A DNA stretch of 64,000 bases from assembly GCA_005778225.1 (NCBI GenBank), contig SXPC01000069.1:3806-67805 (forward strand). The letters run 5' to 3'. This DNA comes from Planctomyces sp. (lineage in GTDB: Bacteria > Planctomycetota > Planctomycetia > Planctomycetales > Planctomycetaceae). Shown here piece after piece: positions 20,033 to 54,622 of the stretch (positions within the stretch are counted from its first letter, which is position 1; every line of letters begins with the position of its first letter). The notes below the pieces were generated by a model. That model was not told where the DNA came from, did no database searches, and saw only the letters and a list, made by a program, of their open reading frames with translations. The position numbers were made by a program, and so were the translations under genes.

Positions 20033-20130
20033 CGCTACATGATGAGCTAGACCTAACTTCCAATTGTGCTTAGCATCCGACCTTTCGCGATTCATAATTC
20101 AGGAATTCTACTTCGGAAGGAACCGAAAAA

Positions 20131-20574
20131 ATGAGCGGCTCGGATGCCATTCTCGTCACCCAAACGCCCGACGGAAAAACTGCTGATGACACCAGATTCA
20201 TTCTCGAAGACAAACACGGCGAGTTGGTCGAACGATTGACCACGTCTCGCGATCCTCGCCCGGTCGACTCAATTCCCCGCTGGCGGCCAGCTCCCCCGCT
20301 GCCAATGAAAGAGACGATCGCTGAGCCCGTCCCACGCGAGATCACCGACGAGCTGAAAGTGAAGCCTTGGGATCTGATGAACCGTGAGGAACGCCGGGCT
20401 CTCAAAAGGCTGATTCGACGCACGGAGAACGCCCGTCCCAACCTCGAAGATATCGAACAGATGGCGAAGTCTTTAGGCCTCGGCAAATACGCGACGCCAG
20501 AGATGATGAAGCCAATTCGTGCTGTGGTAATCGACGAGATTCACGACGGAAAACCACTCGCGCAGGCTGCGTAA
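20131..20574 (+). CDS. Prophage hypothetical protein
   Basis: AAGGA RBS; 147-aa ORF. Confidence 0.6.
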   Translation: MSGSDAILVTQTPDGKTADDTRFILEDKHGELVERLTTSRDPRPVDSIPRWRPAPPLPMKETIAEPVPREITDELKVKPWDLMNREERRALKRLIRRTENARPNLEDIEQMAKSLGLGKYATPEMMKPIRAVVIDEIHDGKPLAQAA

Positions 20575-20736
20575 TCATGACGGATCCCACGGTCAAAATG
20601 CTGGCCAGGATTCTTGGACCGTTTCCAAAAATCCGCCCCAGACTCACAGCGCGGAAGATCCCGGCCAGCGTCCTACGCCGCCGGGCTCGCTTCTTCGCAG
20701 CTCTCACACGGAAGCGATGAGCAAAGGAATCAAACC

Positions 20737-20907
20737 ATGACGGTTTGTGACAAACACGGCAACGAAGATCCGCCCGACCCATACGACGGCCGTCCGGATT
20801 GGACACCCGCCGACACCGCGTTTGAAAGTTGTTTCTGGTCAATCAACGCTGACCTGGTCGCGATGATTCTGGCCGTCATCCTGGTTGTCATTTTTGGATG
20901 GAGTTGA
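20737..20907 (+). CDS. Small membrane protein
   Basis: AAGGA RBS; C-terminal TM helix. Confidence 0.5.
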   Translation: MTVCDKHGNEDPPDPYDGRPDWTPADTAFESCFWSINADLVAMILAVILVVIFGWS

Positions 20908-20909
20908 GA

Positions 20910-21365
20910 ATGGATTCTTTGTCATTGAAACGAGTTTTGCCGGGCTCTCGATATGCAGTCCGATTCACAAAGAGTACTTGGTTTGCAGAGCCAGGTGACG
21001 AATGCGTTTTGGTTTGTGACAGCATCCATCACGACACGCCACAATGGCATCTGGAAAACGAAGAAGACGTAAAATTTCACACAGACAGAAAGAGTACCGA
21101 GCAGTTGGACTTCGAGTTCATTGCCGGCCCGCTGCCAGTTCCAGAGAACACCGAGCGTCAAACTTACTGGTATGAGAACCCATTCAATATTTTGCTGATG
21201 GCAATCCTTATCGCGATCATCCTGACCGAGATCAACCAATGCTTTCACCATCTGAACAGCTCGAAAGAACCACAGCCTTCCACGAACTCGGTCCGCTTGG
21301 TGTCGAGCGACTGCCAGTCGTTCGACCCAACTGGATCGATAGCCGAACCTGGATGGAGATCGTAG
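20910..21365 (+). CDS. Hypothetical membrane protein
   Basis: ORF directly after previous stop; one TM segment. Confidence 0.5.
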   Translation: MDSLSLKRVLPGSRYAVRFTKSTWFAEPGDECVLVCDSIHHDTPQWHLENEEDVKFHTDRKSTEQLDFEFIAGPLPVPENTERQTYWYENPFNILLMAILIAIILTEINQCFHHLNSSKEPQPSTNSVRLVSSDCQSFDPTGSIAEPGWRS

Positions 21366-21498
21366 CTAACAGTACGAAGACCAACCTCGTCTCGACGCTC
21401 ATTGAAAATGCTTTGCTCGCCTTCCGAATTCGGAGAACCGCCGAGCTGTTTGAGAAAGCTTTCTTCGTCGGCCCCGTTCACTTCCCAGGATTGCTGTC

Positions 21499-21771
21499 GT
21501 GCCCCGGTCAAATCTCAAACGAGTCGTCGTTCAATTCGACCCAATCGAGCGATTCTGGAAGGTTTCTTCGGCTCCACCACTCGTTCAACGTCCGGCAACC
21601 CTCACCCCGTTCGGAGAGTTCTGCCGGAACGTCCTTAGCGCACAGAATGCCTTCCAGCGGTTAGCCGACCAGATGGAACCGTGGCACGTCCGAGACCGTC
21701 GGGAGCGTCTGGAACGCCTCTCGGACGACTTCCAAGCCTATGTGCTTTCATGCTCTCAAAACGTCGCTTGA
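21499..21771 (+). CDS. Hypothetical protein
   Basis: 90-aa ORF; overlaps alternative ORF 21239-21664. Confidence 0.3.
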   Translation: MPRSNLKRVVVQFDPIERFWKVSSAPPLVQRPATLTPFGEFCRNVLSAQNAFQRLADQMEPWHVRDRRERLERLSDDFQAYVLSCSQNVA

Positions 21772-22042: not shown

Positions 22043-22837
22043 CTAAGCAGCGAGATCCAATGATGTGGAAATTTCCGCATCGAATCGTTTGGCTGAGATC
22101 TCGCAATAACTTTCCTCTTGCTCAAACATGATGACGCGTCGACCTGTTCTCATTGCTGCAACTCCAGTCGTGCCCGATCCACCGAACGTGTCCAGGATCA
22201 ACGAACCAGGTTGAAACGGTCGCATCAACTCAACCATCAGATCAGTTGGCTTACCGGTGAGGTGATACTTATCTGTCTGCTTGACTGGAAACGTGTAGCA
22301 TCCGTCATAAGGACCATCGTGCGTGGCTTTGTGCACGCTGCCTTTCGATCCCCAAACGATGTACTCGCATTGATGGCGGAAGTATCCCTTGTGTGGGGCT
22401 CGGCTCCCTCGTCCTTTGTTCCAGGTGGCGATACCCTTCCACCCAAAGCCAGACGCCTGGACGATGTTGATCATTGATGGCAGCATTCGCCAGTCGATGA
22501 AGCTGAGAACGTACGCACCTGGTCGGCATGCTTGGAAGGCTTGACCCATCAGCAAAGTCAGCCAGAACTCGAAGCCTCTCGGCTCTCTGGCGTCGCCGTC
22601 GAATGATGGCCTGCCGCGCGCATCAGCGTGATGTGCATACTTAGCAACGACGTCCTGCCCGCGACCGGCAACTGTCCCAGCTCCTGAGCAGTAGGGGGGA
22701 TCGGTTAGAAATCCGTCGATCGACTTCTTCGGCAACCGACGGACCAGGTCGAGAGCTTCGCCATGGTAAAGCTGGACAGAATCGTTCTGATAATACGGCC
22801 GAACTCCGTCGAGAGTCGGCCAGGCGGTCGTCTTCAT
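22043..22837 (-). CDS. Orphan N6A/N4C DNA methyltransferase (beta class)
   Basis: TDPPY before DTFGGSGTTG; HLTGKP. Confidence 0.9.
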   Translation of the reverse strand: MKTTAWPTLDGVRPYYQNDSVQLYHGEALDLVRRLPKKSIDGFLTDPPYCSGAGTVAGRGQDVVAKYAHHADARGRPSFDGDAREPRGFEFWLTLLMGQAFQACRPGAYVLSFIDWRMLPSMINIVQASGFGWKGIATWNKGRGSRAPHKGYFRHQCEYIVWGSKGSVHKATHDGPYDGCYTFPVKQTDKYHLTGKPTDLMVELMRPFQPGSLILDTFGGSGTTGVAAMRTGRRVIMFEQEESYCEISAKRFDAEISTSLDLAA

Positions 22838-22902
22838 GAGTCGCATCCTGCGTTCGTGTGAGAGAGGAAGGTGTTTTCCCACACGAGCGCAGCTAGCGCG
22901 GA

Positions 22903-23742
22903 CTAAGCCGCCAGACGATACTTCGTCATCGTCAGCTTCCCCTCGAACGTCGTGAGGTCGCGGCCGTCTTTGCGCACGACAACCACGAAACCGTAATAGT
23001 CCGGACTGATCGCGGCCGTCTGAACCTTCGACGGCTCGAACTTCACCGCGACTCGTCCAGTCGGCACATGCACAACACCGGTCAACGTCCCGACTTCCTC
23101 GCTGGTCGGCTTGCTGTAATAGAGCGTCACAGTCGCGCCTGTGATGTCGATGTCCGGATTCGAGACCTTGTGGGTCAGAACGATCGCACGGCCATCAACG
23201 GCCGCGTAATCGTCACCACAAACGAGATTGATGTTTCCGTCCTTGTCGACCGGGCTGTATCCGATTGCCGGTCCGATCTTGTTCGTCAGCTGAGAGATCG
23301 CCGTCGACGCGAAACCGGAAATGATGCGGCCCGTCGCCGTCCAAACCCTGCTGGCGATCGATGTTTGAACCGAGTCTGCCAGGCCCATCGAGTCGCCAGG
23401 CTTCGCCCAGGCACCCTCTCGACCCTCTGTGATCGGGATCTCATACACAAAGCTGATCGGGTTGTCGAACTGGTCCGGCGTGCCGTTGTCGCACACGGCC
23501 CAGGAGTAATACATCGTCTCCGGACTGCTGTTGAGATCATCGGCCTGCACGCTCGCGATGTATTGAGATTTGCCGACGCCGACAACGGCCAGCTCGTCCA
23601 TCATCAGATAGGGCTGGTCGTTGATGTTCCACGCTTTGAACGTCTGCGTCGACCAGTGATAGAACTCTCCGGCCGCGTTCCAAATGCGAACGTAACAGTC
23701 GAGACCTTCATCGTCGGTGATCTTAAAATCAATCATTGCCAT
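22903..23742 (-). CDS. Phage tail-associated hypothetical protein
   Basis: End of tail module; beta-rich C-terminus. Confidence 0.6.
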   Translation of the reverse strand: MAMIDFKITDDEGLDCYVRIWNAAGEFYHWSTQTFKAWNINDQPYLMMDELAVVGVGKSQYIASVQADDLNSSPETMYYSWAVCDNGTPDQFDNPISFVYEIPITEGREGAWAKPGDSMGLADSVQTSIASRVWTATGRIISGFASTAISQLTNKIGPAIGYSPVDKDGNINLVCGDDYAAVDGRAIVLTHKVSNPDIDITGATVTLYYSKPTSEEVGTLTGVVHVPTGRVAVKFEPSKVQTAAISPDYYGFVVVVRKDGRDLTTFEGKLTMTKYRLAA

Positions 23743-23750
23743 TGGATTTC

Positions 23751-25172
23751 CTAGCCTACGCCCCATTGAAGTGATGATTGAGACCGCGCCCGTCTCTTGC
23801 GTCTTGACAGCTTCGTCAAAGAGTCTGAATCGAGTTCACCGTAGCGTTGTTTGCGATCGTCGCTGCGGATCTCCAGGTGACCCGTTCCGGCTGTGTAGTC
23901 TCCCCGCTCGTTCTTGTGCAGGTTGAATTGCCCTGTAACGGTCTGCCCTGTCGTCGGATTGCGGAGCTTGACTTCGGGCGCTCGACCCTCGATCGCATGC
24001 TTGCCCAGGCCGGTCAATGTTTGGTAGGTCGGATAGACGATTTCCGTGAACGTTGTGTTGGCAGACATCATGTGCGTGTAGAACATGCCGAGCCGCGCGT
24101 CGCCGGTAAAGGTGGCGCGACGATGAAGCGTCCCATCGGTCGTCAGATCTTGCAGCGTAAAGACATCGAGATAGCCGCCGCCGTGTGGCCGAAAGTCGAT
24201 CTGCGTTTTCTGTTGAATGACCAATGAGTAACAGACGAACGGCACTCCAATCACAGGCGCAGTGTCAACTGCATCAACCAGGATCTTATCAGCTGCCAAT
24301 CGCTTCTCGCCGTGGAACCCGCCGCCCAACAGATTCGCGTCCCGATCGCCAACCGCATACCAGTTTTCGGATTCGCCTTGAATCGAATACGCGTTGTTGT
24401 CGCGGAAGCTCGCGAAGGTATCAAGCCCACCACCACGCGTTTGCGGGTGATCGAGAGAGACGAAATTGATTCCGAAGATGTACAGCGCTTTGACGCCGGT
24501 TCCGTTGCCTGTATGCCTGACTCGAATCGTCCGGGCACCGGGCACCACAGAAAACTCTGCGATGATCAGTCGGCCCGACTGCGTGCCGGTCAGATTCTCT
24601 TGCCAGACGATCTTGCCAGCTACTGAGATCTCAACTTCAGCGCCTCCAGACGAAGCGAGAAATGCGACCCGACATTTTGCCTCCGGTGGAAAAGTTTCGT
24701 CCCATTCCAGGCAGTCATTGCCAAGCGTGGTCAGTCGAGCGACTGGCGCAGTTCCCGCCGTTGATCCAGGAACAACTGTCGCCACTCCGATGTTTTGATC
24801 CGACCAGCCCGTTGGCCCAGCTCCGAGAGCAGCAACCGCCGACGTCGCGACTCCGATCCGCGTCGGAATTCGCTTGTAAGCGCAAGCCGACATGCCGACG
24901 AGGTTCTGAACGAGCGAGATTCCGAATCGATCTTGTGACTGCACCTGCCCGTTCGAATCTTGCACGGTATTGATCGAACCAGAGAGGCCGTACTTTCCAT
25001 TGGCCATCTGCACCTGCAGGCCACCTTTGCCGCCGCCGGGCTTGTGGGAGAACAGCAAAAGAGAATTTGCATTTTGCCACACAGCGATCTTGAGCGAACT
25101 ACCGGCGGTCAGGTCGTTCGGGGGCAGGATCTCGGCCGGAAGTCCGGACGTGTCGCGTTGTGCTTCGGGCAT
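23751..25172 (-). CDS. Putative tail/receptor-binding protein
   Basis: Start MPEAQ with AAGGA RBS; G/T/S-rich beta-like sequence. Confidence 0.55.
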   Translation of the reverse strand: MPEAQRDTSGLPAEILPPNDLTAGSSLKIAVWQNANSLLLFSHKPGGGKGGLQVQMANGKYGLSGSINTVQDSNGQVQSQDRFGISLVQNLVGMSACAYKRIPTRIGVATSAVAALGAGPTGWSDQNIGVATVVPGSTAGTAPVARLTTLGNDCLEWDETFPPEAKCRVAFLASSGGAEVEISVAGKIVWQENLTGTQSGRLIIAEFSVVPGARTIRVRHTGNGTGVKALYIFGINFVSLDHPQTRGGGLDTFASFRDNNAYSIQGESENWYAVGDRDANLLGGGFHGEKRLAADKILVDAVDTAPVIGVPFVCYSLVIQQKTQIDFRPHGGGYLDVFTLQDLTTDGTLHRRATFTGDARLGMFYTHMMSANTTFTEIVYPTYQTLTGLGKHAIEGRAPEVKLRNPTTGQTVTGQFNLHKNERGDYTAGTGHLEIRSDDRKQRYGELDSDSLTKLSRRKRRARSQSSLQWGVG

Positions 25173-25176
25173 GGTC

Positions 25177-25533
25177 TCAATCCTTGATACCGTAATCGGA
25201 ATTCCAACAGGTGATGCACTCCGGGTATTTCGTCGCTGCGAACTTCGCCAGGTCGATCTTCGGACATCGGCAGAGCCGACAACGCACCGCGCCTTTACCC
25301 CAAACGCACTTGTTGCAGTTCGCCAGGCGCCGCTGCATCTCGTCAGGCGGATTGAGCTCGCCGCCGGATTCAATGATCGCTCCGAGCTTTTCCGGCGCGT
25401 CCCGCATGACGCGAAGCGCCTCTCGAGTACTCGTCTGTCCGGCGACGACGTCGAGCGCGAGCGACACGCCCGACTTGATGACGGCCGGCAAGATTTGAAC
25501 GGCCGCTTTGACCTTTTCCTCACATGTACACAT
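25177..25533 (-). CDS. Cys-rich small phage protein
   Basis: GGAG RBS; RRLANCNKC..CRLCRC..C motif. Confidence 0.65.
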   Translation of the reverse strand: MCTCEEKVKAAVQILPAVIKSGVSLALDVVAGQTSTREALRVMRDAPEKLGAIIESGGELNPPDEMQRRLANCNKCVWGKGAVRCRLCRCPKIDLAKFAATKYPECITCWNSDYGIKD

Positions 25534-25624
25534 TTCGAAAAATCTCCATCCTTGGAGCGAAGGTGCCGTTCCCTTTTGCCGGGAGAAGGGTATGGTGGCA
25601 CACCTCTTTCTCCGGGATTCATCC

Positions 25625-25825
25625 ATGAAAACGCATCGCTTGTTGATCGTGATCTGCTTGTTTCTTTGTGTGCCAATCTCCTGCATCGGCTGGTCGGTTT
25701 ACAAAGACCGGCAACTGATGCCGCTGTCCGGCGAGGACGGCGAGTACCTCGACCAGGTCGAGAAACACAACCGCGCTCTGATCGACAAAGTGGAACGCGA
25801 TCGCGAAGCCGCTAACCAAAATTGA
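25625..25825 (+). CDS. Opposite-strand single-TM small protein (moron)
   Basis: MKTHRLLIVICLFLCVPISCIGWSVYK then charged helix; fills the gap between tail genes. Confidence 0.55.
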   Translation: MKTHRLLIVICLFLCVPISCIGWSVYKDRQLMPLSGEDGEYLDQVEKHNRALIDKVERDREAANQN

Positions 25826-28800
25826 TGGTCACGTTGTTCATCGCGAATTCCTCTCTCTGGTCGTACGTTGTGATGCTGCCAGTCGGGCATTCCGTCAGAT
25901 AGAGAACGGTTCCCTCAAATCCAGAACCCGCGTTGATTTCAAGCCGATAACTCGAAGGCCCAAGTTTCGTCAGCTGCACCGACATCGGAATCGCTGCACT
26001 GCCTGGATCTGGAACTGACCAGGTACAACCGGACTCGTTGCCAGTTTGGAAGTCGACAGTCCCGTTGTAAGTCGCTTCCGGCACGCCACCAAAGAACGTG
26101 TTGTAGACCCAATCCAACTCAGCAGGCAGGCCACACATTGAACAGGCACAACAGCACGTGTTCGTCGCGTCGCTGACTGTCACCTCATACACGTTGGTCG
26201 GCCCGACGTGTCGTGCGTACCGGTTGTAAGTCTTGCTGCAACTGCTGTCAGCGTTGCGAATCACCATAACGACCTGCGCCGCCGATCCACCGACGCAGGT
26301 TAGTTCGACATCAGCTCTGAGACAGTCGTCCGTACCTGGAACGATGAAGTCGGCAATCTCATAAAGTCCACTGCCCGCGACTCCGCTGAGGTTGATGTTG
26401 CCGGTCCAGCTGTGACAGGCGGTCGTGATTGTTGTGTTTAGAACCATCGTCGAACCGGCTGAATTACAGTCGTATGGTGGCGGGTCAGCTTCACAATCAG
26501 GTTGCGGTCCTGAAAAACATCGCCCCTGGATAATGCCACCGTTCGTGAAGCCACCACTCTCGATGATCGAGTCTTTCGCCGCGAAAAGTGCATCACCGAG
26601 ACAGGGGCAGTAGCATTCGCACGTACCGCCGGCGTTGATGATCCACGCACGTGGCCCGGCCCCTTCGACGCCGATGAATAGTTCGTTGAACGTCTCGACC
26701 GACGTCACGGGAACAAAATCACCAGGTGCGCTATCAACGTGAGAAAGTCGATAAAGACACACGCCACCGCCGGGACAATCACCCGTCACGCCGTTGCACA
26801 CGTGAACATACAGCCGACCGTTGTTACTGACGATGAATTGTCCTGGAGAGTCTTCCGGCCGGCATGTGCATTTGCAGTTGGTGTACCAGCTGCGAGGCTC
26901 CGAAAATTCTTCGTCTCCGATGTCTCCGCACTCAATCACACACTGCGCCTTACAGGTCTGCACCAGGTAAAAAGTATCCGCTGGTGACTCAAAGTAGACG
27001 CTGACGGGCTCACCTGGATTGACGAGCGACATCGCCAACGCATAGGCGCCGATTGCACCAAAGATATCACCTCGTCTCAGCGACTTACTCTTGTGTTCAA
27101 AGAGCAGAGAGCGATAGTCGTCAGGTGAGACGATGCCCGTGCTTCCGCCCAGATTTGATTTCGAGATCGCCAGGATATCCTTGCCGGGATGCGCGGCATC
27201 ATCAACGATGTGCGTGCCCCAAACGTAATCCCCAGCCAGCGTGTAATGATGGTAAGGTGACTCAGCGAGACTGCCGCAAAGAAAGGTCGCAGGATCGGTG
27301 TACCGATACCCTGAACCGACTTCGACATAGCCGGTCGACGTCGTTCCCCAGTTCGGCTGGTAACGAGTATTGATCCACGGCGTGAGGCTTGTCGTATTCT
27401 CAACGATGGACTTCGTGTCGACCGTGAAAGTCTCGATGTTCGAGCCAATGTAGAGCGCCGCCGAGCCGTCACCATTCCCGACGTAGTATGTGGGAAACGT
27501 ATAATTCCCGGTCTGTGTGGCGATGGGATCGCAATTGCCACCAAGATACGTGCCGGCCCCGAAACCATCAGTCCATGACTCAGAGCAAAAAGTCTTCTTT
27601 AGGCCTGTCAGCGTGCCGTCAGCCTGCAGGCTAAAAAATATCGAATGGAAATAATAGACGGTGGTTGGCGGAATGGACCCCATGATAGGAAGCGCTTCGT
27701 CGAACCAACGGCACCAGCCGAAATAGGTATCATTGCTCAACACTTCGATGCGGAATCGCTGCAGGCAGCTGGCGTCGAAGCCGTGCCAATAGCCGGGACT
27801 CACGACAGCGGGCTCACCGATCGGCGCGGCGACGGTCATCGTATGCGTTTGCGTGTAATCAACCGGGCCTTGAATCCCGAGATACAAGTCCGCCGACTCT
27901 GGATAATGCACGCTGGCCACAAACCCCGTCGACCCGGCGTTGATTTCGTCGCAGAGCAGCTGCAGAGCGACTTGATATTCGGTTTCCGCGTCCAGCGAGA
28001 CACTAAAGGTTGTGCCGTCGATTGTCGCAGCGAGAACGGTATCCTCTGGCCAGAAGCCATAAGGCAAAAATGGATTGCCTGGATACTCCGCAATGAAACA
28101 ACGCCAGCCGGGATGCCCAAACCAGAACCATTCCTCAAAATCTTCACCAGTCACATCGGTGTTAAGGTCAGGCTCGGCTGTCAGAAGATAGTAACCGCCG
28201 GCATCGTAGACGAACGACGTGTGAGATCCATCGTCACCATTGAGGACTGCGTATTCTGAGGCAGCCAGCAAGATGCTTTCTGCGCCTTTCCACGTCCGGA
28301 ACATGATCGTGTCCGAACTTCCGCATCCCGCCATCACTGAGATATGACCGACGCCGTTTTCGGTCATCGATGGATTCTCAAACCAGTCATCAAAAAGAAC
28401 GGTTGTGCTGAGATCAGCGACCGCATCCACAGTCACCAGCCCATAAGTCCCGGTCCCCGTCTCTCTGAAGACGATCTGCCATGAGGAGACTTGCTGATTG
28501 TACCAGGCCCAGATGATTGAATCGTAAAAGATGCCTAGATGCGCGAACCGATAGTTCTGATAGCGCTGTTTTTGGTTATGTTGAAAGTTACTTCCGTCGA
28601 ACGACTCCAGCCTGAGAATTGACGTTGATGTGATATCGACCGCGGCGACTTCATCCGGACCATTGTCGGACGATCTGAGAATGACCGACTCATACCCCGG
28701 ACTGGCCACAATGCGCGTCCAGACACCATGGGTTTCGTCGAGGACGCACCCAGCTGACACAAGGAAGCGATGCGGATCGGTCCCGATGTCTTCGCCGATC

Positions 28801-28883
28801 GCTTCGCCGCTTTGATTCAGTCCGTCGAACTCCAGCGGTTCGCGTGGGTTGCTGTCTCGTGTACGCTCACAACAGCAACTCAT
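25812..28883 (-). CDS. Large Cys-rich tail tip/adhesin-like protein (1023 aa)
   Basis: Position after distal tail genes; MSCCC start, many Cys clusters. Confidence 0.6.
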   Translation of the reverse strand: MSCCCERTRDSNPREPLEFDGLNQSGEAIGEDIGTDPHRFLVSAGCVLDETHGVWTRIVASPGYESVILRSSDNGPDEVAAVDITSTSILRLESFDGSNFQHNQKQRYQNYRFAHLGIFYDSIIWAWYNQQVSSWQIVFRETGTGTYGLVTVDAVADLSTTVLFDDWFENPSMTENGVGHISVMAGCGSSDTIMFRTWKGAESILLAASEYAVLNGDDGSHTSFVYDAGGYYLLTAEPDLNTDVTGEDFEEWFWFGHPGWRCFIAEYPGNPFLPYGFWPEDTVLAATIDGTTFSVSLDAETEYQVALQLLCDEINAGSTGFVASVHYPESADLYLGIQGPVDYTQTHTMTVAAPIGEPAVVSPGYWHGFDASCLQRFRIEVLSNDTYFGWCRWFDEALPIMGSIPPTTVYYFHSIFFSLQADGTLTGLKKTFCSESWTDGFGAGTYLGGNCDPIATQTGNYTFPTYYVGNGDGSAALYIGSNIETFTVDTKSIVENTTSLTPWINTRYQPNWGTTSTGYVEVGSGYRYTDPATFLCGSLAESPYHHYTLAGDYVWGTHIVDDAAHPGKDILAISKSNLGGSTGIVSPDDYRSLLFEHKSKSLRRGDIFGAIGAYALAMSLVNPGEPVSVYFESPADTFYLVQTCKAQCVIECGDIGDEEFSEPRSWYTNCKCTCRPEDSPGQFIVSNNGRLYVHVCNGVTGDCPGGGVCLYRLSHVDSAPGDFVPVTSVETFNELFIGVEGAGPRAWIINAGGTCECYCPCLGDALFAAKDSIIESGGFTNGGIIQGRCFSGPQPDCEADPPPYDCNSAGSTMVLNTTITTACHSWTGNINLSGVAGSGLYEIADFIVPGTDDCLRADVELTCVGGSAAQVVMVIRNADSSCSKTYNRYARHVGPTNVYEVTVSDATNTCCCACSMCGLPAELDWVYNTFFGGVPEATYNGTVDFQTGNESGCTWSVPDPGSAAIPMSVQLTKLGPSSYRLEINAGSGFEGTVLYLTECPTGSITTYDQREEFAMNNVTINFG

Positions 28884-29407
28884 GTTGACCCGTACCCCCT
28901 GTTGAGACCGCCGGTGTGATCGCCTTCCAGGTTGTCACCTTCGCTGCTCCACGCCAATTCGACCGACCAGCCATTGATGCCTTTGATGCGGATCTCGACT
29001 TCGCCGTTTGGTAAATCGCCACCATCGAGAGTCAAAGTGAAGATGTCTGGATTGGCCACGACGGTGGCCAGCTCATTCCAGGACTTGCGAACGCTAGGAG
29101 CTTCCTCTTCTTCCTCTTCGACTTCTGGACTCTCCAATTTCTCCTCCCACCCAATGAGCCAGTCTTCTTCAATGTCCTCTTCGCCCGCTTGGCGAAAAAT
29201 GACTCGAAGTATGGCGGAACCGCCGGTGGCACTGCGGAAGGACAAGAACCAAACGCGCGTGCAAGATCCGCCGCCGACGCCAGGCTTCGGACCTTTCGGA
29301 CGCTTCGCTTCGTTGATGACGGCCTCGATCTTGGACTTGTTCTGGCCGAACCAGCTATCCAAGACCTTCAGCCGATTCGCCAACGCATCACTCAATACAC
29401 TCGCCAT
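28880..29407 (-). CDS. Tail-module hypothetical protein
   Basis: ORF coupled to neighbours. Confidence 0.6.
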   Translation of the reverse strand: MASVLSDALANRLKVLDSWFGQNKSKIEAVINEAKRPKGPKPGVGGGSCTRVWFLSFRSATGGSAILRVIFRQAGEEDIEEDWLIGWEEKLESPEVEEEEEEAPSVRKSWNELATVVANPDIFTLTLDGGDLPNGEVEIRIKGINGWSVELAWSSEGDNLEGDHTGGLNRGYGST

Positions 29408-29418
29408 CGTCTGACCCC

Positions 29419-32900: not shown

Positions 32901-32928
32901 GTGACCTCCCTGTCCTCATCGAACAGCG

Positions 32929-34164: not shown

Positions 34165-34199
34165 GACGGCGCTCCTCCTGAGCAGATGATTGATGGGGG

Positions 34200-34236: not shown

Positions 34237-34247
34237 GATCAGTTTGA

Positions 34248-40309: not shown

Positions 40310-40364
40310 GGCTTCCCCCCTGTTTGATACTTCCTGTAATCCGTCAAAATCACCCGTCAGACGC

Positions 40365-43756: not shown

Positions 43757-44241
43757 CAGTCGTCCTCCTCATCGAGCATGCCCCCCATCGTGGACTTCTC
43801 ATCAACCACGAACGAAACGACGGCACCTCGAGCGCGAGGCGTCAGGCCGAACTCTCCGCACCAAGCGAGGACGTCTTTCCACGACTGACGATGCAGCGAA
43901 ACAATCGGATCTTGATACCGGCCGCCCTTTTCCGAGAAGCACGTGTGATTGGGCAAACTCTCCAGTTCATCGGAGTAATACAGCCACCAATGGTAGGCCG
44001 TCATGCCGGCACGCCAGGCGAGCCAATCCCCTTCCGTCAAAGCGCCGGCTTCAATCAACAACTGACCTAGGCGACGGTGTTCGGCGACGACTTCTGAGGA
44101 CCACAGTCGCATGGCCGGGGGAAGTTTCTTCTTCCACTCCTCCGCGACCGGCTTCATATCTTTGGGTTTGAACGTCCCGTCGGCTTTCTTCTGAGCGATC
44201 GTCTTCGGCTTGCGGCCGCTGCGTCCTGCTTTCCCCGCCAT
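43756..44241 (-). CDS. terS: Terminase small subunit (P27 family)
   Basis: GRKPK start; EFGLTPRAR. Confidence 0.85.
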   Translation of the reverse strand: MAGKAGRSGRKPKTIAQKKADGTFKPKDMKPVAEEWKKKLPPAMRLWSSEVVAEHRRLGQLLIEAGALTEGDWLAWRAGMTAYHWWLYYSDELESLPNHTCFSEKGGRYQDPIVSLHRQSWKDVLAWCGEFGLTPRARGAVVSFVVDEKSTMGGMLDEEDD

Positions 44242-45131: not shown

Positions 45132-45257
45132 TTATCGCGTTTCGTCATCACACGAACAATGGTTCGTGTCGGTGCGTTTCACCAGCATCCAAAAGATACA
45201 AAGATCGACGGCCAGATAGAGACTTAAAAGCAGTGTCTCGAAGTACTCCAAAGTCAT
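45132..45257 (-). CDS. 41-aa single-TM peptide
   Basis: Hand translation MTLEYFETLLLSLYLAVDLCIFWMLVKRTDTNHCSCDDETR; AAGGTG RBS. Confidence 0.4.
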   Translation of the reverse strand: MTLEYFETLLLSLYLAVDLCIFWMLVKRTDTNHCSCDDETR

Positions 45258-45366
45258 ATGTCACACCTTTCACGAGCGGTTAAACTCCGCCCAACATGCC
45301 AACGGTTTCTATTCCGAGACCAGGAATAACGTCAGGCAGCCACATAGCTGCCGGCGTTTCAAGTGT
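45232..45366 (-). pseudogene. Degenerate duplicate of 45753-45887 (5' part of holin-like gene)
   Basis: Ungapped 135-bp alignment, ~75% identity, in-frame TAA. Confidence 0.7.
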
Positions 45367-45778
45367 TGCTGTGCATCCCGTCATCACTGGCCGCAGATTC
45401 CGCAGATCGAACTTGGTCGGCTGTCATCACGCCGGTTGTCGGATGCTCAACGAATCCGCAACCACATTCACCGGAGTTCTCGTCAAACAGGACGCAATGT
45501 CTTTCTCCGCAACTCATGACCCGGATGGACACCATCCGAGGCGTGCCGTCAGCTGTCTTCAGCGCGTTGCGCTGTGACTGACTGCGAGCGTCCAGGACAT
45601 ACGCCAACTCGGCGATGTTATCGAACCGGTCGATTGCCTTGTCCTTGTGACGGATCAGCCCCAGCGCGTCGTTGTCCAGTTCCCACGCTGCTTTCTCGAT
45701 CGCCCACTTCAGCAGGTCGACCATCATGATCAAACAAATCACCAGCAGCTTTAGCAGCCCGAAACGCACCAAACCCAT
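45359..45778 (-). CDS. N-terminally anchored membrane protein (lysis cassette candidate)
   Basis: Hydrophobic N-terminus; overlaps the upstream ORF in another frame. Confidence 0.45.
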   Translation of the reverse strand: MGLVRFGLLKLLVICLIMMVDLLKWAIEKAAWELDNDALGLIRHKDKAIDRFDNIAELAYVLDARSQSQRNALKTADGTPRMVSIRVMSCGERHCVLFDENSGECGCGFVEHPTTGVMTADQVRSAESAASDDGMHSNT

Positions 45779-45905
45779 ACTTCACCACCTTCACGAGCGG
45801 ACGAACCCCGCCCAACATGCCGACGGCCTCGATACCGAGACCGGAAATAATGCCAGGCAGCAACGTCGCTGCCAGCGTTCCAAGAGTTCCCAGACCGATG
45901 AGCAT
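45618..45905 (-). CDS. Holin-like small membrane protein
   Basis: GGAGG RBS; hydrophobic N-terminus, charged tail. Confidence 0.45.
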   Translation of the reverse strand: MLIGLGTLGTLAATLLPGIISGLGIEAVGMLGGVRPLVKVVKYGFGAFRAAKAAGDLFDHDGRPAEVGDRESSVGTGQRRAGADPSQGQGNRPVR

Positions 45906-47825: not shown

Positions 47826-47862
47826 AAAAAGTCCGGATTCCCAATCCATCGGGAATCCGGAC
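47826..47862 (-). terminator. Leader terminator of late operon
   Basis: 12-bp perfect stem GTCCGGATTCCC/GGGAATCCGGAC then T5. Confidence 0.65.
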
Positions 47863-47944
47863 CGTCAAGGCAGCTGCGTCAAACTATGTCCGGCGGTTGC
47901 CCTCGAAGTCGCTAAAGATGGCGACGAATCGAATCTGAGGGACA

Positions 47945-48523: not shown

Positions 48524-48775
48524 ATGCAATCTGCACCGACTCTCACCGCTCCCACTCCGTTACCAGTTCCGAAACTGACGGCATTTCAAAAACACGTTCT
48601 CAACGTCGTCCGGGCTCTGGGCCCCATGAGCTGCGCCGACGTCGCGAAGAAATGCCATCCCCATCGGAAGCATGTCATGAAGGCGCTGTATCGGTTGCGA
48701 AAATGCGACCTGGTCTATCGCGGCGGCCAGGGGTATAGCGCGGCAGCCGCTGACGACCTGCCAGCGGCCGCGTGA
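48524..48775 (+). CDS. Winged-helix DNA-binding protein
   Basis: LTAFQKHVL..GPMSCADVAK..VMKALYRL..LV. Confidence 0.65.
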   Translation: MQSAPTLTAPTPLPVPKLTAFQKHVLNVVRALGPMSCADVAKKCHPHRKHVMKALYRLRKCDLVYRGGQGYSAAAADDLPAAA

Positions 48776-48776
48776 G

Positions 48777-49217
48777 TCATTCGATGATATCGCCGGACGC
48801 ATAAGCGACGACGTCCTTCAGCCATGCTCGGAGCTCTTTGATATCGTCGTCGTCAATGTCCTCAGCGTTGGCGAGTTCGTGGTAGAGGTGTTTGACCTGG
48901 TCGAGTAACCAATCACTATTCTCTCGCAGACGAGCGTCTCGTTTCCACTTTTCATGTTTGGTTCTCTCGATCGCCTGATACTCATCCTGCTTTTCCGGCG
49001 TCCAGATGTAGGTCGGTCCGATGCTGCAGTTCCCGGTCGACCGAGCCCAATGAAACATACGTTCGACCTCAAACTGAACGACGTCGCCGGTCACAAGAAT
49101 GTCGACGCCTTCATGCTCGAAACGAACGACGGACCGCCTTGCTTTCGCGTGCATGATCGCCATCCGGACAGCACAATTGAGCGTCTGACGTTTGGGATTG
49201 AATTCTATGATGGCCAT
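48777..49217 (-). CDS. Hypothetical protein
   Basis: GAGGAG RBS; last gene of early operon. Confidence 0.6.
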   Translation of the reverse strand: MAIIEFNPKRQTLNCAVRMAIMHAKARRSVVRFEHEGVDILVTGDVVQFEVERMFHWARSTGNCSIGPTYIWTPEKQDEYQAIERTKHEKWKRDARLRENSDWLLDQVKHLYHELANAEDIDDDDIKELRAWLKDVVAYASGDIIE

Positions 49218-49227
49218 CCGTCGCTCC

Positions 49228-49521
49228 TCACATACCTAACATCGTGAGAAAGAAAAACACGAGCCACCCAACGATCAGGCCAAAGAGAAGTGCAGCATCA
49301 GCCTTCTTCTTCATGGAGTCCATAGATTGTTCTCGCTGCGTCAGATTACGAATCACAACGCCTTCATTGTCGATTGGATCATGAGACAGGTTGACCCGTA
49401 CGGTTTGCGGACTTTTCGTGATCTCGATCGACCTCACGAATCGGCGCTCTTCGCCCTCGTAAAGTTCAACGTAGCAACCTTGCTGAGTGTCGACGTCGGC
49501 GATGAAAAAGAACTTCGGCAT
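49228..49521 (-). CDS. Hypothetical protein, C-terminal TM
   Basis: Coupled ORF. Confidence 0.55.
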   Translation of the reverse strand: MPKFFFIADVDTQQGCYVELYEGEERRFVRSIEITKSPQTVRVNLSHDPIDNEGVVIRNLTQREQSMDSMKKKADAALLFGLIVGWLVFFFLTMLGM

Positions 49522-50126
49522 TATCTCCGCTCCTCAAACGGGATCATCTTGTCGGTGTAACCCAGCCGCGATGGATGCGACGGGAATCCTGATTTCGTCA
49601 TCGCCAGGCACATCGGCTTGATCCCCAGCTCTGCCAGATGTTCGAGGACATACTTCGCCTGGTTCCATTCCCCGCACTTCACCTCGTCATCGCGCCAGCA
49701 TTCCAGGTCGGCAGTGTTCCCCCAGCAAATGCAGGTCGCATGAGTCGAGAGACAAGCTAGCGTGATCCAGTCGAGCAGATCGTCGCCAACCAGCTCGTCG
49801 TATTCCTTCGGCAGCTGCTTCGACTCGGTCATGATGACCGAGAACAGGTTGACCAGGTAAAACGATCCGAAACCGTGTCTGGTCGCGAACCCGATCAGCT
49901 TTCGGACAGTCGCATCGTTCACCTTGGCGTCGGCCACAGAAGGATTGAGGCTGATGTAACAGACCCGAGGTTTCGTGAAGTCCCAAGCCCTGACCAGGCA
50001 ATAACGATGCTCACCGTTGGAGCTGAAGACGGCCGTCGAGATCTGCGAGACTTTCTTCGCCTGCGCCTCCGGATCGGGGAACATCTTGAACAATGCCCTG
50101 GCGTTGTTGAATGGATCATGCGTCAT
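49521..50126 (-). CDS. DUF1643 family protein
   Basis: HRYCLVRAW, LNPSVAD..DAT, VNLF, WG, HP. Confidence 0.85.
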   Translation of the reverse strand: MTHDPFNNARALFKMFPDPEAQAKKVSQISTAVFSSNGEHRYCLVRAWDFTKPRVCYISLNPSVADAKVNDATVRKLIGFATRHGFGSFYLVNLFSVIMTESKQLPKEYDELVGDDLLDWITLACLSTHATCICWGNTADLECWRDDEVKCGEWNQAKYVLEHLAELGIKPMCLAMTKSGFPSHPSRLGYTDKMIPFEERR

Positions 50127-50416
50127 CGTGTCACCGCCTTCGCTGGGAGCTGCTGTTCCAAAATGGCCTTGATGATTTCCCAGCTCGAAGAACTCATCGA
50201 GAGCTTGATCGAACTATCCCCATTCTCTTTGCTGATCATCAGCGAACAGAGTCCGCCGTTGCCGGTATCAAACCCGACCGAAATACTTCCGGTCCATCCG
50301 TCAGCCTCAATCGTCAGGAGACGACGGTAGTCGGTCCTCGACTTATTCGCTCTGAAGCCCTTGAAGAGCAGCCAATCATGGATGTCGCCCCTGACATCGC
50401 CTTTTGCATTTCTCAT
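50123..50416 (-). CDS. Hypothetical protein
   Basis: RBS and ATGA coupling. Confidence 0.55.
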   Translation of the reverse strand: MRNAKGDVRGDIHDWLLFKGFRANKSRTDYRRLLTIEADGWTGSISVGFDTGNGGLCSLMISKENGDSSIKLSMSSSSWEIIKAILEQQLPAKAVTR

Positions 50417-50439
50417 CGTTCCCCCTTGTTTAGTTATGA

Positions 50440-50832
50440 CTAAATTCCGTGCCTACTGATCTCGGCGACCGTCTCCAGCAACCAGTCCGCGTGACACTCA
50501 CGATTGAGCGGACACCAACACGCGAGATTCTTTCCTGCGAGGTTCCGGACGGCGTTCCGAAACGTCTGCAGCGGCCGTGCTTCGTTCTGCTCCGATTGCC
50601 ACATCGACAAGAACCATTTCTTGTAAAACTCGATCGCATCTTTTCGATCGATATACAGACCAAACTCCTTCTCCCCGTTCGATGGTCGTATCACGATGAA
50701 GTCATGCATCTGAAACGGATTGCCGAGAATCGTCGGCCGTCCCACATAGGCAACCGGCAGACCGTTCGGGCTCGCATCCTGGAGACGGAAGCCCTTGCTT
50801 CGTTTGCGTTGAATCCGGACGGGCGTCGTCAT
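50440..50832 (-). CDS. DUF4326 family protein
   Basis: YVGRPTILGNPF, LAGKNLACWCP..CHAD. Confidence 0.88.
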   Translation of the reverse strand: MTTPVRIQRKRSKGFRLQDASPNGLPVAYVGRPTILGNPFQMHDFIVIRPSNGEKEFGLYIDRKDAIEFYKKWFLSMWQSEQNEARPLQTFRNAVRNLAGKNLACWCPLNRECHADWLLETVAEISRHGI

Positions 50833-52061
50833 TCCCTCACCTCCGGCATCCCGTTGTGTTCAAAGCCATCGAGCAACCGGCCGGCCGCTTTCTTGCCGAC
50901 ACGCATGACGCTGACTGGAAGTTCCTCGATTCGTTGTGAGTAGCTATAACGCTCCTCACGCGGGATCTCATCGGCGAACTTACCGTTTGAGAACATCATT
51001 CGATGCGGATGGGAGTCGAGGTTCATTCCGTGAGTGAAGCAGTCGTAATCGGGCATGCCGATCCATTCGCCGTGTTGCTTGTAGAAAAATGGGACGTCGG
51101 CTGCTAAACACTGGTCGCGAAGAGTTCGTGCCCAGTTGGGATGCATTGGACGGATGCTCTTCTCTTTGCCGGATTCGCCACCACAGATCACCCAGTCAAT
51201 CGAAGCCCCTGTATCGGTGTCACCTTCTGGCCAGTAAGTCACTCCAGACAACACATTGGTCGAGCAAGGTGCGTTTCGATTGATAGGTGGAATGAGTGTC
51301 AGATCCACCGGCCCGAGAAGCGGCTCGCAACTGAGGAACAACACCGGCGACAGTTCGCGGCATCTGAGCAGTTGAGGAATCCGCTTATAAGCCATCTCCT
51401 GATTCTCGACTGAAGTGCCAAGCCAAACATTGCTGAGCGGCTTCTTTCGATACCTTGGAACTTCACCTGGTTCGATGCCGGCAAGATCAATCATCGGCTC
51501 GCTTAGATTCCACATGGGCAGAATGTTTTCTGGCCGCTTCGTTACCAACAACCAGTCGAGCCACGGTGTCGCTTGCGTTAGCTTAAAAAGTCGATTCAAC
51601 ACGTCGGACATTGTGACTAACTGCCAGCCCTGCGGATCTCGTTTCATTGATTCGAGATCCGCTGTGTCCCAGTGCTCATGCCCCCACTCTCGCTGAGAAT
51701 ATGGCTTGATCCAGGCATCGCCAGCGCCATTTACGATCGGACCAAACCATGACTCAAAGACATCGGCGAACGATGCGCAGAAAACTTTCTGGCGTACTCC
51801 CGCTTTCTCAGCTTGCTCGTTCCATTTGAGCGGTTGAGCCCACATCGATTCAGCAGCGAGAACTCGCTTCCCTTCGACGGCCTCCGGCCCCCAAACACCG
51901 AGTAAGCTGGGATTGCGTTTGCTCTGTGCCGCTGCGTAGCAGTGGACACATCCAGGCGAAACACGCTGGCATCCTCGCCAGGGATTGAAAGTATGATCGG
52001 TCCACTCAATTTTCGAATTAGATCCCACGTTTTCCCTTTCGTTCGCGATAGTGCAAACCAC
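50829..52061 (-). CDS. DUF5131 (phage Gp37/Gp68) protein
   Basis: SKIEWTDHTFNPW.GC..VSPGC.HCYA, TKRPEN, SCEPLLG, GGESG; real start probably 52028. Confidence 0.9.
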   Translation of the reverse strand: MVCTIANERENVGSNSKIEWTDHTFNPWRGCQRVSPGCVHCYAAAQSKRNPSLLGVWGPEAVEGKRVLAAESMWAQPLKWNEQAEKAGVRQKVFCASFADVFESWFGPIVNGAGDAWIKPYSQREWGHEHWDTADLESMKRDPQGWQLVTMSDVLNRLFKLTQATPWLDWLLVTKRPENILPMWNLSEPMIDLAGIEPGEVPRYRKKPLSNVWLGTSVENQEMAYKRIPQLLRCRELSPVLFLSCEPLLGPVDLTLIPPINRNAPCSTNVLSGVTYWPEGDTDTGASIDWVICGGESGKEKSIRPMHPNWARTLRDQCLAADVPFFYKQHGEWIGMPDYDCFTHGMNLDSHPHRMMFSNGKFADEIPREERYSYSQRIEELPVSVMRVGKKAAGRLLDGFEHNGMPEVRE

Positions 52062-52221
52062 CTGACAGAACTGAAATCACCGGTTGATAGCCGGGGATCA
52101 TGAGTTGAACTCGTTCCTTACCACCCTTCGCCGGTCCGACGCAGCGACCAGGCAAATACACATCCGGAAGATGTGACCGCTTCGAAGCTCGTTGAACCCA
52201 AACCAAATCACCTTCATTCAT
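52018..52221 (-). CDS. Small hypothetical protein
   Basis: Coupled to replication gene. Confidence 0.45.
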   Translation of the reverse strand: MNEGDLVWVQRASKRSHLPDVYLPGRCVGPAKGGKERVQLMIPGYQPVISVLSGGLHYRERKGKRGI

Positions 52222-53371
52222 CGCTTGCCCTTTCCTCAGTGATGACGGCAACCGAACCCCCGGCCGCCTGCTTTGCTCTCAATTCCCTAATCGCAGCGTC
52301 GCGTCGACTCTCAAACTCCCGCGTCCCTTGCTCGTCGGTCGGCAACTTGCCGAGGTCACTACCCCGCTTCGCTCCGAACTTCTGACGCCAGAACTTCTTC
52401 GCCTCGTCGAGACATGAGTCAGCGTGATACCGGCAGGAATTCCCGTCGCCATCCTCACCCGTTTTCAGCAGCGTCACCAGAACCGCCGCGACGCTGCCGA
52501 TCGGCTTCCGCCCTCGCTTCACATGCTCAGCCGCCTTTGCTTTCTGCCTGACCAGGTTCAACGTAATCGCCAGGATGAAGGCTTCCAGCTCACCAGGCGT
52601 GTCGACGTCGACGCCATGCAATGCCCCCAGCTCGTCGCAGACGCCCTCCAGGGCTCGTATCTGGTCCACAAAGGCCATGACCCCCGTCTCCGATCGCAGC
52701 TGCGTGTCAGAGACCCAGGGAACCGCAGGACCAGGTCGCGTCTCACGGTTCTTTCTCCCCTCTGAAGAGTAGGAAGTATTTTTAGAGATACTTTCAGGGG
52801 ATTTAATACTAGTACTGGGCGCATCTGCTGATGAAGAAGAAGGTGATGATGATGAAGACGATGATGATGCTGATGAAGAAGACGGCGGTGATGAAGAAGA
52901 CAAACGACGTTGTGCCGCCGCCCAGGCCGCAACGTCGTCAACCTGATCTCGCTGCTGCAGCGTTGCCGGAGGTTCGTCTTCGAGACCTGCCACCGCCTCT
53001 TTCAGCTTCTCCATGTCGATGGCGAACATCAGCGGCCGGGAACTATTCTCCGGCCGCTCCTCAAGATCGGGGATGCTGACAAACGCATGTCCGCGACGTT
53101 TGAGGTGATCAATGCACCGGTCGAGCGTGGCGGAACTCAGACGCGCGTCTGAGCCCGCATAGTCGACTAGGTGCGTGCGCTTGATCGAGAAGATGCGGAA
53201 CCCGTTGACGAGCCGGACTTCCTTACCGGAAGCCATCAGCGCGTCCGCAGCTCGCAGCAGAGCGATCAGGAGACGACGCTCGTAGCCCGGCGCGTCGTCT
53301 TCGGGAAACGATAACCGTTTAACCTCCGCGATGAACGCGACCAGGTCGAAGTTCAAAGACTTCTGTTGCAT
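52214..53371 (-). CDS. Putative replication initiator
   Basis: wHTH-like N-terminus, central Ser-rich linker encoded by repeats plus an AT-rich tract. Confidence 0.6.
   Translation of the reverse strand: MQQKSLNFDLVAFIAEVKRLSFPEDDAPGYERRLLIALLRAADALMASGKEVRLVNGFRIFSIKRTHLVDYAGSDARLSSATLDRCIDHLKRRGHAFVSIPDLEERPENSSRPLMFAIDMEKLKEAVAGLEDEPPATLQQRDQVDDVAAWAAAQRRLSSSSPPSSSSASSSSSSSSPSSSSADAPSTSIKSPESISKNTSYSSEGRKNRETRPGPAVPWVSDTQLRSETGVMAFVDQIRALEGVCDELGALHGVDVDTPGELEAFILAITLNLVRQKAKAAEHVKRGRKPIGSVAAVLVTLLKTGEDGDGNSCRYHADSCLDEAKKFWRQKFGAKRGSDLGKLPTDEQGTREFESRRDAAIRELRAKQAAGGSVAVITEERASDE
52777..52900. repeat. Putative phage origin: four 12-bp iterons plus AT-rich tract
   Basis: TGATGAAGA(A/C)GA at 52829, 52850, 52871, 52889. 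Confidence 0.6.
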
Positions 53372-53414
53372 GGCATGCCTGCCGATCTAAGGGCTTCCCA
53401 GCCCGTTTGGAGCT

Positions 53415-53681
53415 TTAACCCTTTGCAGTTCGGACGTAATTCGGCGTTTTGCTTACCGGCATTAAGTCGCCCAGAGGGTCAAAGAAAACCGGCTCAGCGA
53501 CTAAGCCAGGCTGGTCGATCGGTTCGGCAATGGCGGTCAGCAGCTCCGACCGCAAGATGGTGATACCGGCAGGCGCTTGAATGCCGAGACGCACTTTGTC
53601 GCCTCGAATATCAACCACCATGATGGTGATGTCATTTCCGATACGTATCGTCTGATTCAGCTTTCGTGAGAGGACTAACAT
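53415..53681 (-). CDS. csrA: Carbon storage regulator CsrA/RsmA homologue
   Basis: MLVLSRKLNQTIRIGNDITIMVVDIRGDKVRLGIQAPAGITILRSEL. Confidence 0.92.
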   Translation of the reverse strand: MLVLSRKLNQTIRIGNDITIMVVDIRGDKVRLGIQAPAGITILRSELLTAIAEPIDQPGLVAEPVFFDPLGDLMPVSKTPNYVRTAKG

Positions 53682-53743
53682 TGCGATTCCCTTCAATGAT
53701 GATTCACCGGGCGATCATCGCCGGCCCGGCAACGGCGTGTGTT

Positions 53744-54220
53744 TCATAAGGTGAGCGGACGCAAACTTTCGATCTGTTCGTCGAGCAGCTCCGGAAACAA
53801 CATTTCCGACTGCTCGCGTTCAAGGTTCGTGATCTTTTTTTGATTTCGCTTGGCTCGCTGGTCAGCGACCTTCTCAGCAGACAGCGGACGATATTCCAGC
53901 AATGAGCCCCATGCGATGACATAACGAAATGGGTAAACTGTCTGCCCGTTGAAGTCATAGCCGGGATGATGTTGCGCGGTCAGTCGTTCCTGCGAGCTTT
54001 GTTCTGGCGCAGGTGGCTGCCAGCCTTGTCGGCCCGGCCATTGGGCGCAGAAATATCGTTTGATTGATCCATCGACTCGATCAGTAATTACCCAAACTCC
54101 ATAAGCCGAGGCGTCATCGCCGAGCTGCAGCTTCGCGTGCGATAGTTCCGAGTTCATATCCTCAGCAAGTGTTGCCCGAGACTCGGCAGATTCGATTTCA
54201 AATTTTGTTGGCGTTGCCAT
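53744..54220 (-). CDS. Hypothetical protein
   Basis: Early operon ORF. Confidence 0.55.
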   Translation of the reverse strand: MATPTKFEIESAESRATLAEDMNSELSHAKLQLGDDASAYGVWVITDRVDGSIKRYFCAQWPGRQGWQPPAPEQSSQERLTAQHHPGYDFNGQTVYPFRYVIAWGSLLEYRPLSAEKVADQRAKRNQKKITNLEREQSEMLFPELLDEQIESLRPLTL

Positions 54221-54223
54221 CGC

Positions 54224-54607
54224 TCAGTTCCCTTGGATCATGGAGTCGAACTTGTCAGTCACCCATTGAGCGACGTTGGTAAAAACGTCATCGCGGATCG
54301 CATCCAGGCGTTGGGCAGCCTTGAGAGGTTTGCCTGTGCCATTTCCGCACAAGATGTGAATCTCCACACTCTTCATCAATGTCACGAACCGCGAGACAGA
54401 GTTGCCGCGGAACATCGTGACGACGTCGACGACGACGTCCTTGGTGTCGAGGTCGAGGAACCCGACAAGCATGCGCGGGAACTGCTCTGGCCTAGCAACT
54501 TCGACGCAGAAAGTCAGCGAGTACTGCAGTTCGACATTGGTGTGCCGGCAGATCGTGAATACCTTCGACGGCCGTCGGCGCTGTTTGGTTGTCTGTTGAG
54601 GCTTCAT
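54224..54607 (-). CDS. Hypothetical protein
   Basis: Early operon ORF with RBS. Confidence 0.55.
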   Translation of the reverse strand: MKPQQTTKQRRRPSKVFTICRHTNVELQYSLTFCVEVARPEQFPRMLVGFLDLDTKDVVVDVVTMFRGNSVSRFVTLMKSVEIHILCGNGTGKPLKAAQRLDAIRDDVFTNVAQWVTDKFDSMIQGN

Positions 54608-54622
54608 CCCTGATCCCTTTTC

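Follow-up and report, generated by a model that had tools for sequence, protein, structure and literature searches.

The window examined here is a 64,000-nucleotide (nt) stretch of contig SXPC01000069.1 (GenBank assembly GCA_005778225.1, Planctomyces sp.). It contains a prophage that carries a csrA gene and whose ribosome-binding sites (RBSs) show an excess of small hairpins with the Shine-Dalgarno (SD) GGA in the loop. The host is a Planctomycetaceae genome assembled out of a freshwater metagenome (5.1 Mb, 305 contigs, 87% complete). Among the sequencing runs listed with this DNA there were none of RNA, and the sole full match was a freshwater metagenome, probably the one from which the DNA came. 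The element is a complete-looking HK97-type temperate siphophage of about 39 kb, integrated in tRNA-Met and bounded by an exact direct repeat of 55 nt (Table 1); no other HK97-type prophage was found in the assembly. Nearly all of its genes lie on the minus strand. Three unannotated genes are followed by the integrase, an early block, a terminator, an amidase-like gene with a membrane-protein gene, and TerS. Then come TerL, the portal, the protease, the HK97-type capsid, the adaptor, neck proteins, tail chaperones and the tape measure, and the order closes with large tail proteins and a DNA methyltransferase. The early operon holds csrA and two genes of DUF families; its other genes are unannotated.

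The initial annotation, made from the letters of the window and a list of its open reading frames (ORFs), had placed a csrA homologue with intact beta1 and beta5 RNA-binding motifs in the early operon, and this was borne out. The ORF lies at 53415-53681 on the minus strand and encodes a product of 88 aa, which matched the Pfam family PF02599 (CsrA) with 77.9 bits against a cut-off of 27, over residues 1-52 of the 53-residue domain. In PHROGs it matched phrog_9500, "CsrA-like regulator" (E 6.5e-16), and phrog_5527 (E 9.6e-15). Its first 52 aa form the CsrA domain, and no match was found for the remaining 36 aa, a C-terminal tail. An alignment of 40 sequences (39 homologues and the phage protein) showed that all invariant columns are present in the phage CsrA (L2, V3, L4, R6, R31, G33, P37, R44 and E46), including the predicted RNA-contact residues in beta1 (L2, L4, R6) and beta5 (R44, E46). 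The one change is at H43, which is nearly invariant and is L in the phage protein. The top matches among solved structures were Bacillus subtilis CsrA (1t3o), Geobacillus CsrA from the FliW complex (5dmb) and RsmE with hcnA RNA (2jpp); the alignments to the CsrA and RsmE chains, the latter over residues 1-58, agreed on the RNA-contact residues. Judged by its sequence, the gene codes for a canonical member of the CsrA family, whose proteins act as dimers and bind GGA in short RNA hairpin loops.

We then examined the RBSs of the phage for hairpins that could present the SD GGA. Genes were called genome-wide with one procedure, and 45 phage starts were curated; 33 phage SD-GGA sites were scored. 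With G·U pairs allowed, a stem of at least 4 pairs and a loop of at most 8 enclosing the SD GGA (the tolerant criterion), 18 of the 33 sites qualified. The expected number was 8.6±2.4 under SD-preserving shuffles, 9.5±2.4 under flank-wise shuffles (p=0.0015), 8.1±2.5 in SD-length-matched draws of host genes (P<0.0002) and 9.8±2.3 when flanks were swapped among phage genes with every flank kept intact (p<0.0005). Host genes had no such excess, with 484/1967 observed and 508 expected under flank-wise shuffles (z=-1.2) and z=-0.3 for a host sample under the flank swap. When the loop register was slid along the leaders, a single peak was found, at GGA (z=4.0), and the registers that pair GGA in the stem were depleted (d=+4 to +8, z -1.3 to -2.1). 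Replacing G·U by an A·C pseudo-wobble abolished the excess (z=0.2). Therefore, the signal is carried at the RNA level by the sense strand and does not come from DNA palindromes. The phage RBSs have an about twofold, GGA-centred and sense-strand-specific excess of SD-loop stems, which is probably real in this prophage, with roughly nine sites above expectation.

Stricter criteria gave smaller differences. Watson-Crick stems of at least 4 pairs, with a loop of at most 8 containing the SD GGA, were present at 6/33 phage sites, compared with 8.5% of the host genes (p≈0.06) and 10.4% of operon-internal host genes (p 0.15). Boltzmann sampling gave a probability above 0.5 for GGA lying in a small hairpin loop in 6/33 phage leaders and in 12% of host leaders. 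The comparison of phage and host RBSs by SD-preserving shuffles, which had been proposed together with the initial annotation, gave a split answer: it was marginal for strict Watson-Crick stems, and for G·U-tolerant stems it revealed a twofold excess (p≈0.001 before correction) that the host lacks.

The excess was also sought in other phages. Control phages with annotated starts showed none (L5, z=-1.3; phiC31, z=0.0; lambda, z=0.7), nor did the SD-GGA genes of unrelated TerL-related phages, 749 and 417 in two sets (1,166 in total; z=1.1 and -1.3), nor a set of 89 genes from close relatives in IMG/VR (z=1.1). When 398 genomes of the family were searched with the capsid, 13 contained related prophages, at 26-47% identity. 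Three of these Planctomycetaceae genomes (G225, G223 and G205) harbour distantly related prophages that keep csrA in the position seen here, with the integrase on one side, the lysis/terminase genes on the other and the capsid gene 10-15 kb downstream on the same strand. By tblastn, the early-region proteins of our prophage other than csrA and the integrase had no matches in these three. Their RBSs, taken together, had hairpins under the tolerant criterion at 28 of 68 sites, compared with 19.0±3.4 under flank-wise shuffles (p=0.009) and 18.7±3.2 under the flank swap (p=0.0045). For G321b plus G003, p was about 0.02-0.03 with G·U pairs and about 0.006 with Watson-Crick pairs only. The excess is weaker in the relatives than in this prophage, the p-values of its replication there spanning 0.005-0.06.

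The distribution of csrA around these prophages was examined further. In G321, a csrA (62% identical) is found 18 kb downstream on the opposite strand. No csrA was found within the 40 kb examined for G003, G153 and G199. Among 160 further TerL-related loci (genomes and IMG/VR), csrA was found only in the two prophages already known, and a phylum-wide capsid search for csrA-positive relatives added only two truncated loci. G205 is Planctomicrobium sp. SH527, listed as a named strain with a complete chromosome, so a bench test would be possible if the strain can be cultured. In its prophage, around 7569-7770 of the fetched region, the csrA stop codon is 10 nt before the start of an amidase-like gene, and csrA directly precedes the lysis/late module. 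G321 has two very similar prophage copies (C1 and C2) with matching synteny and identical leader stretches, one of them with csrA. In each copy, the portal RBS itself carries a hairpin of 7 bp, tggtgaa-GGGA-ttcacca.

The phage copy is one of many CsrA proteins in this bacterial family. The source genome has 8 CsrA-family loci, and thus seven host paralogues besides the phage copy; with 9-17 loci in each of 10 related genomes, the range over the Planctomycetaceae genomes, source included, is 8-17. We found no match to FliW (PF02623) in the source genome, whose 87% completeness leaves this absence unproven. A tree of 42 CsrA domains resolved the chromosomal copies into several orthologous groups common to different genera, and the five prophage-associated copies were divergent singletons that did not cluster; 52 columns are too few to tell one origin from several for the prophage copies. 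The phage CsrA has no close full-length match, its best homologues being 51-58% identical over the N-terminal part, and 59 GenBank phage records match it. We also considered a dedicated phage CsrA subfamily. One top match was chromosomal and one was on a phage-like contig, and this idea was therefore dropped. Studies of the expansion of CsrA paralogues in Planctomycetaceae seem to be lacking in the literature searched.

All the GGA hairpins listed in the initial annotation do exist in the window, and the positions of the main ones are given in Table 1. Some entries stand on weaker ground than others. The start of the so-called Cys-rich tail gene is uncertain because its GGA is 15 nt from the ATG, and the stem at 54604-54613 has 3 pairs only, with the start codon inside its 3' arm. 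The hairpins of the capsid gene and of the csrA leader, the latter formed by CATTG...CAATG enclosing a 10-nt loop, are outside the predicted minimum-energy fold. In the hairpin at 25177-25187, the 3' arm includes the TGA stop of the upstream gene. The consensus obtained for CsrA by systematic evolution of ligands by exponential enrichment (SELEX) is RUACARGGAUGU. The capsid RBS matches the core of this consensus, CARGGAUG, and carries CAAGGAUG within the hairpin atca-AGGA-tgat.

The initial annotation had further suggested that CsrA silences or times the translation of virion genes. Under the tolerant criterion, hairpins were found on 8/14 early genes and 9/17 late genes. Since the frequency is the same in both classes, there is no sign of a lytic or virion-specific switch. 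The capsid hairpin has a predicted occupancy of 0.04, and the capsid leaders of the csrA-positive prophages G225, G223 and G205 are without this hairpin. At the capsid RBS of G003 there is a 6-bp hairpin, tgtcga-AGGA-tcgaca, which is stronger than that in our window. A switch aimed at the virion genes is not supported.

A number of results weigh against the view that the phage hairpins are CsrA sites, or against the excess itself. The excess was mainly seen once G·U pairs were allowed; for Watson-Crick stems, the 6 phage sites compared with 2.6-2.8 under the nulls, a marginal difference (p 0.04-0.06), and no Watson-Crick excess was found in the csrA-positive relatives. About six stem/loop definitions were tried, and the p-values need a roughly six-fold correction. 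The motif CA(N)GGA(N)TG occurs at the RBSs of 3/45 phage genes and 121/3787 host genes, proportions that look alike by eye, without a test, and the phage sense strand contains 11 CsrA consensus words with 8.3 expected, which is no enrichment. For the CA/UG closure, which the initial annotation had not seen in the few host RBSs inspected there, the phage showed no or only marginal enrichment. The thermodynamic stability of the leaders was not above that of their own shuffles. A second upstream GGA hairpin (10-60 nt), which a CsrA dimer would favour, was no commoner in the phage, with GGA in loops in 32% of phage and 31% of host cases. There was no sponge-like GGA-rich RNA either, as GGA occurred at about the host rate in all eight non-coding stretches of the prophage. 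The replication in the relatives reached only z=1.7-2.0 (p≈0.05) with a second gene caller and was gone within the TerL±10 kb sub-regions alone (z=0.8), and the hairpins are not conserved at orthologous genes. Finally, the hairpins did not follow csrA from phage to phage: G003, with no csrA found within 40 kb, had the same hairpin trend as the csrA-positive prophages, and the csrA-positive Pseudomonas phage PA8 had no RBS hairpin excess (z=0.8).

The data fit sites that are diffuse, weak and spread over many phage RBSs rather than a dedicated late switch, and they do not separate the phage CsrA, the host CsrAs and a CsrA-independent display of the SD from each other. As the best explanation, and tentatively, we propose that SD-loop hairpins throughout the phage are bound by proteins of the CsrA family. 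The phage RBSs would have evolved short, weak and often G·U-containing stems that show the SD GGA in the loop, and CsrA-family proteins would bind many of these RBSs, the binder being the phage CsrA, some of the seven other paralogues of the host, or both. Such binding would damp or tune translation genome-wide, on early and late genes, without acting as a late-gene switch, and the phage CsrA may also act on host mRNAs. CsrA as the binder, binding as repression and a role in timing are each points that we infer, and self-regulation of the phage by CsrA is a candidate that can be tested. The broader proposal, that the prophage lineage has made its own translation part of the CsrA network, with the phage CsrA and host paralogues binding SD-loop hairpins on a large share of the phage genes, is possible but doubtful. 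From the first interpretation of this locus, what we keep is the csrA gene in the early operon and the SD-GGA stem excess absent from the host; the CA(N)GGAUG closure and the late switch are not supported.

An alternative, about which we are also doubtful, is that the phage CsrA serves chiefly as an accessory regulator directed at the host, acting in lysogenic conversion or host takeover as the plasmid protein RsmQ does and reprogramming the translation of host motility, metabolism and defence genes. The hairpin excess would then be irrelevant and partly the product of analysis choices. RsmQ acts globally on host mRNAs (PMC9928087), phage csrA genes have been proposed to manipulate hosts (PMC11879866; PMC7366521), and the lack of an excess in PA8, the trend in G003 and the fragile replication in the relatives all agree with this alternative. 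It gives no reason for three traits of the excess, namely the exact centring on the SD GGA, the need for G·U pairs and the lack of any such signal in host genes and unrelated phages; it is also not mutually exclusive with binding at the phage's own RBSs. The stems might instead be SD-display hairpins unrelated to CsrA, in which the SD is kept unpaired yet pre-organised for ribosome recruitment or for translational coupling in tight operons. The depletion of GGA-in-stem registers beside the enrichment of GGA in loops points this way, as do the presence of hairpins on early and late genes alike and in G003, and loop sequences that show nothing beyond ordinary SD composition. However, a general translational advantage should not stay confined to one prophage lineage in a CsrA-rich family, and no excess exists under the G·U criterion in host genes, strong-SD ones included, or in L5, phiC31, lambda or about 1,300 other-phage genes. 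We consider SD display unlikely. Least probable by far is the strict earlier version, in which CsrA, bound to CA(N)GGAUG hairpins, keeps late genes silent or sets the time of their translation and so takes over part of a repressor's role. It could draw on the capsid RBS, with CAAGGAUG in its hairpin, and on the prophage having no CI/Cro-like gene that was recognised by Pfam or PHROGs. But a repressor may be hidden among the early proteins, most of which are unannotated, and the strong terminator at 47830-47863, which is probably the terminator of the early operon and a likely point of transcriptional early/late control, suggests that this control is of the ordinary kind. The strict version also runs against the unenriched motif, the equal involvement of early and late genes, and the unconserved capsid hairpin with its low predicted occupancy.

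A phage-borne csrA is of an already known kind. Such genes were found in 30 of 2,517 phage genomes in a survey that called for loss-of-function tests (Sobrero & Valverde 2020, PMC7366521). The nearest counterparts are the PHROG 9500/5527 and RsmM type of Pseudomonas Hollowayvirus (F116-like) phages such as PA8 (PMC7366521), which have, as here, an early-region CsrA-domain protein of a temperate phage with a C-terminal extension; in PA8, csrA is near the repressor in the early operon. Unlike these, the present CsrA is only 38% identical, its host is a Planctomycete, its gene is kept between the integrase and the lysis/packaging genes in a separate prophage lineage, and its phage has the RBS hairpin excess that PA8 lacks. 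The Escherichia coli phage PTXU04 also encodes a CsrA, gp28, whose knock-down by CRISPRi-ART led to smaller plaques (PMC11879866); gp28 has no known targets and no reported link to phage RBS structure. RsmQ of plasmid pQBR103 is likewise a CsrA/Rsm homologue on a mobile element in a host with paralogues of its own, but it belongs to a plasmid and its action is on the mRNAs and behaviour of the host, and control of its own element's genes through RBS hairpins has not been claimed (PMC9928087). Like the canonical CsrA/RsmE sites at SD hairpins (RsmE-hcnA, 2jpp), the hairpins here have a loop GGA that overlaps the SD; unlike them, the stems are weaker, consensus flanks and second sites are not enriched, and neither a sponge RNA (in the prophage) nor FliW (in the 87%-complete genome) was found.

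Phage csrA genes have been catalogued since 2020; the literature searched holds one knock-down phenotype, that of PTXU04, no known targets, and no demonstration that a phage csrA controls the phage's own RBSs. If the SD-loop hairpins prove to be genuine CsrA sites, the prophage would be the first case of a phage that controls its own translation by a CsrA that it carries. It would be a case of genome-wide post-transcriptional control of a temperate phage by its own regulator, and it would open the biology of the Planctomycetota, with members that have 8-17 CsrA paralogues. If the excess is not related to CsrA, what is left is a further phage csrA, from a host phylum new for such genes.

Table 1. 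Coordinates of prophage features and RBS hairpins in the window
Feature	Position	Strand	Remarks
att repeat, distal prophage end	19978-20032		exact 55-nt copy of the 3' part of tRNA-Met
att repeat within tRNA-Met	58919-58973		tRNA gene 58920-58994, minus strand
Tyrosine integrase	55300-56376	minus	Pfam Phage_integrase, E 4.7e-12
Early operon	48560-55224	minus	co-directional with integrase; holds csrA, DUF5131 (50829-52028), DUF1643 (49521-50126)
Strong intrinsic terminator	47830-47863	minus	between early and lysis/packaging genes; perfect 15-bp stem, TGGA loop, U-tract
Packaging/head module	37684-44241	minus	TerS 43756-44241, TerL 42038-43756, portal 40365-42041
Head module, continued		minus	protease 39671-40309, HK97-type capsid 37684-39099
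Connector/tail module and last gene	22043-37044	minus	adaptor 36439-37044, tape measure 30369-32900, large tail proteins
N6/N4 DNA methyltransferase	22043-22837	minus	last gene of the element
RBS hairpin ttggc-AAAGGAG-gccaa	35185-35201	minus	before gene 35182; in minimum-energy fold; sampled probability 1.0
RBS hairpin cgcg-GAAGGATA-cgcg	44791-44806	minus	before gene 44786; sampled probability 0.95
RBS hairpin ttcgg-AAGGAA-ccgaa	20112-20127	plus	before plus-strand gene 20131; sampled probability 0.93
RBS hairpin tcaa-GGA-ttga	25177-25187	minus	before gene 25172; sampled probability 0.84
RBS hairpin cggact-AAGGA-agttcg	42046-42062	minus	G·U pairs; before portal gene; sampled probability 0.77; absent from the initial list
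RBS hairpin atca-AGGA-tgat	39103-39114	minus	capsid gene; predicted occupancy 0.04
RBS hairpin gctc-AGGAG-gagc	34171-34183	minus	before gene 34164; predicted occupancy 0.02
Hairpin cgca-GGA-tgcg	22842-22852	minus	before methyltransferase ATG at 22837

Some other features of the prophage were noted. The gene immediately downstream of csrA, at 52214-53371, encodes a 385-aa protein with no family match, and within it, at 52826-52901, three 21-nt tandem units give rise to a highly acidic repeat. Between the lysis-like genes and gene 44786 there is an imperfect (77%) direct repeat of 129 nt, at 45239-45367 and 45760-45888, with a spacing of 521 nt. In the head module, the protease and capsid genes are separated by a 571-nt gap (39100-39670, minus strand) that has no convincing ORF, which is unusual in such a module, and its GGA density is ordinary. 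Just upstream of the tape measure gene, two minus-strand ORFs, 33517-34164 and 33240-33740, share 224 nt, each in a frame of its own. The latter matches PHROG 344, tail assembly chaperone, and the two may form a programmed-frameshift chaperone pair.

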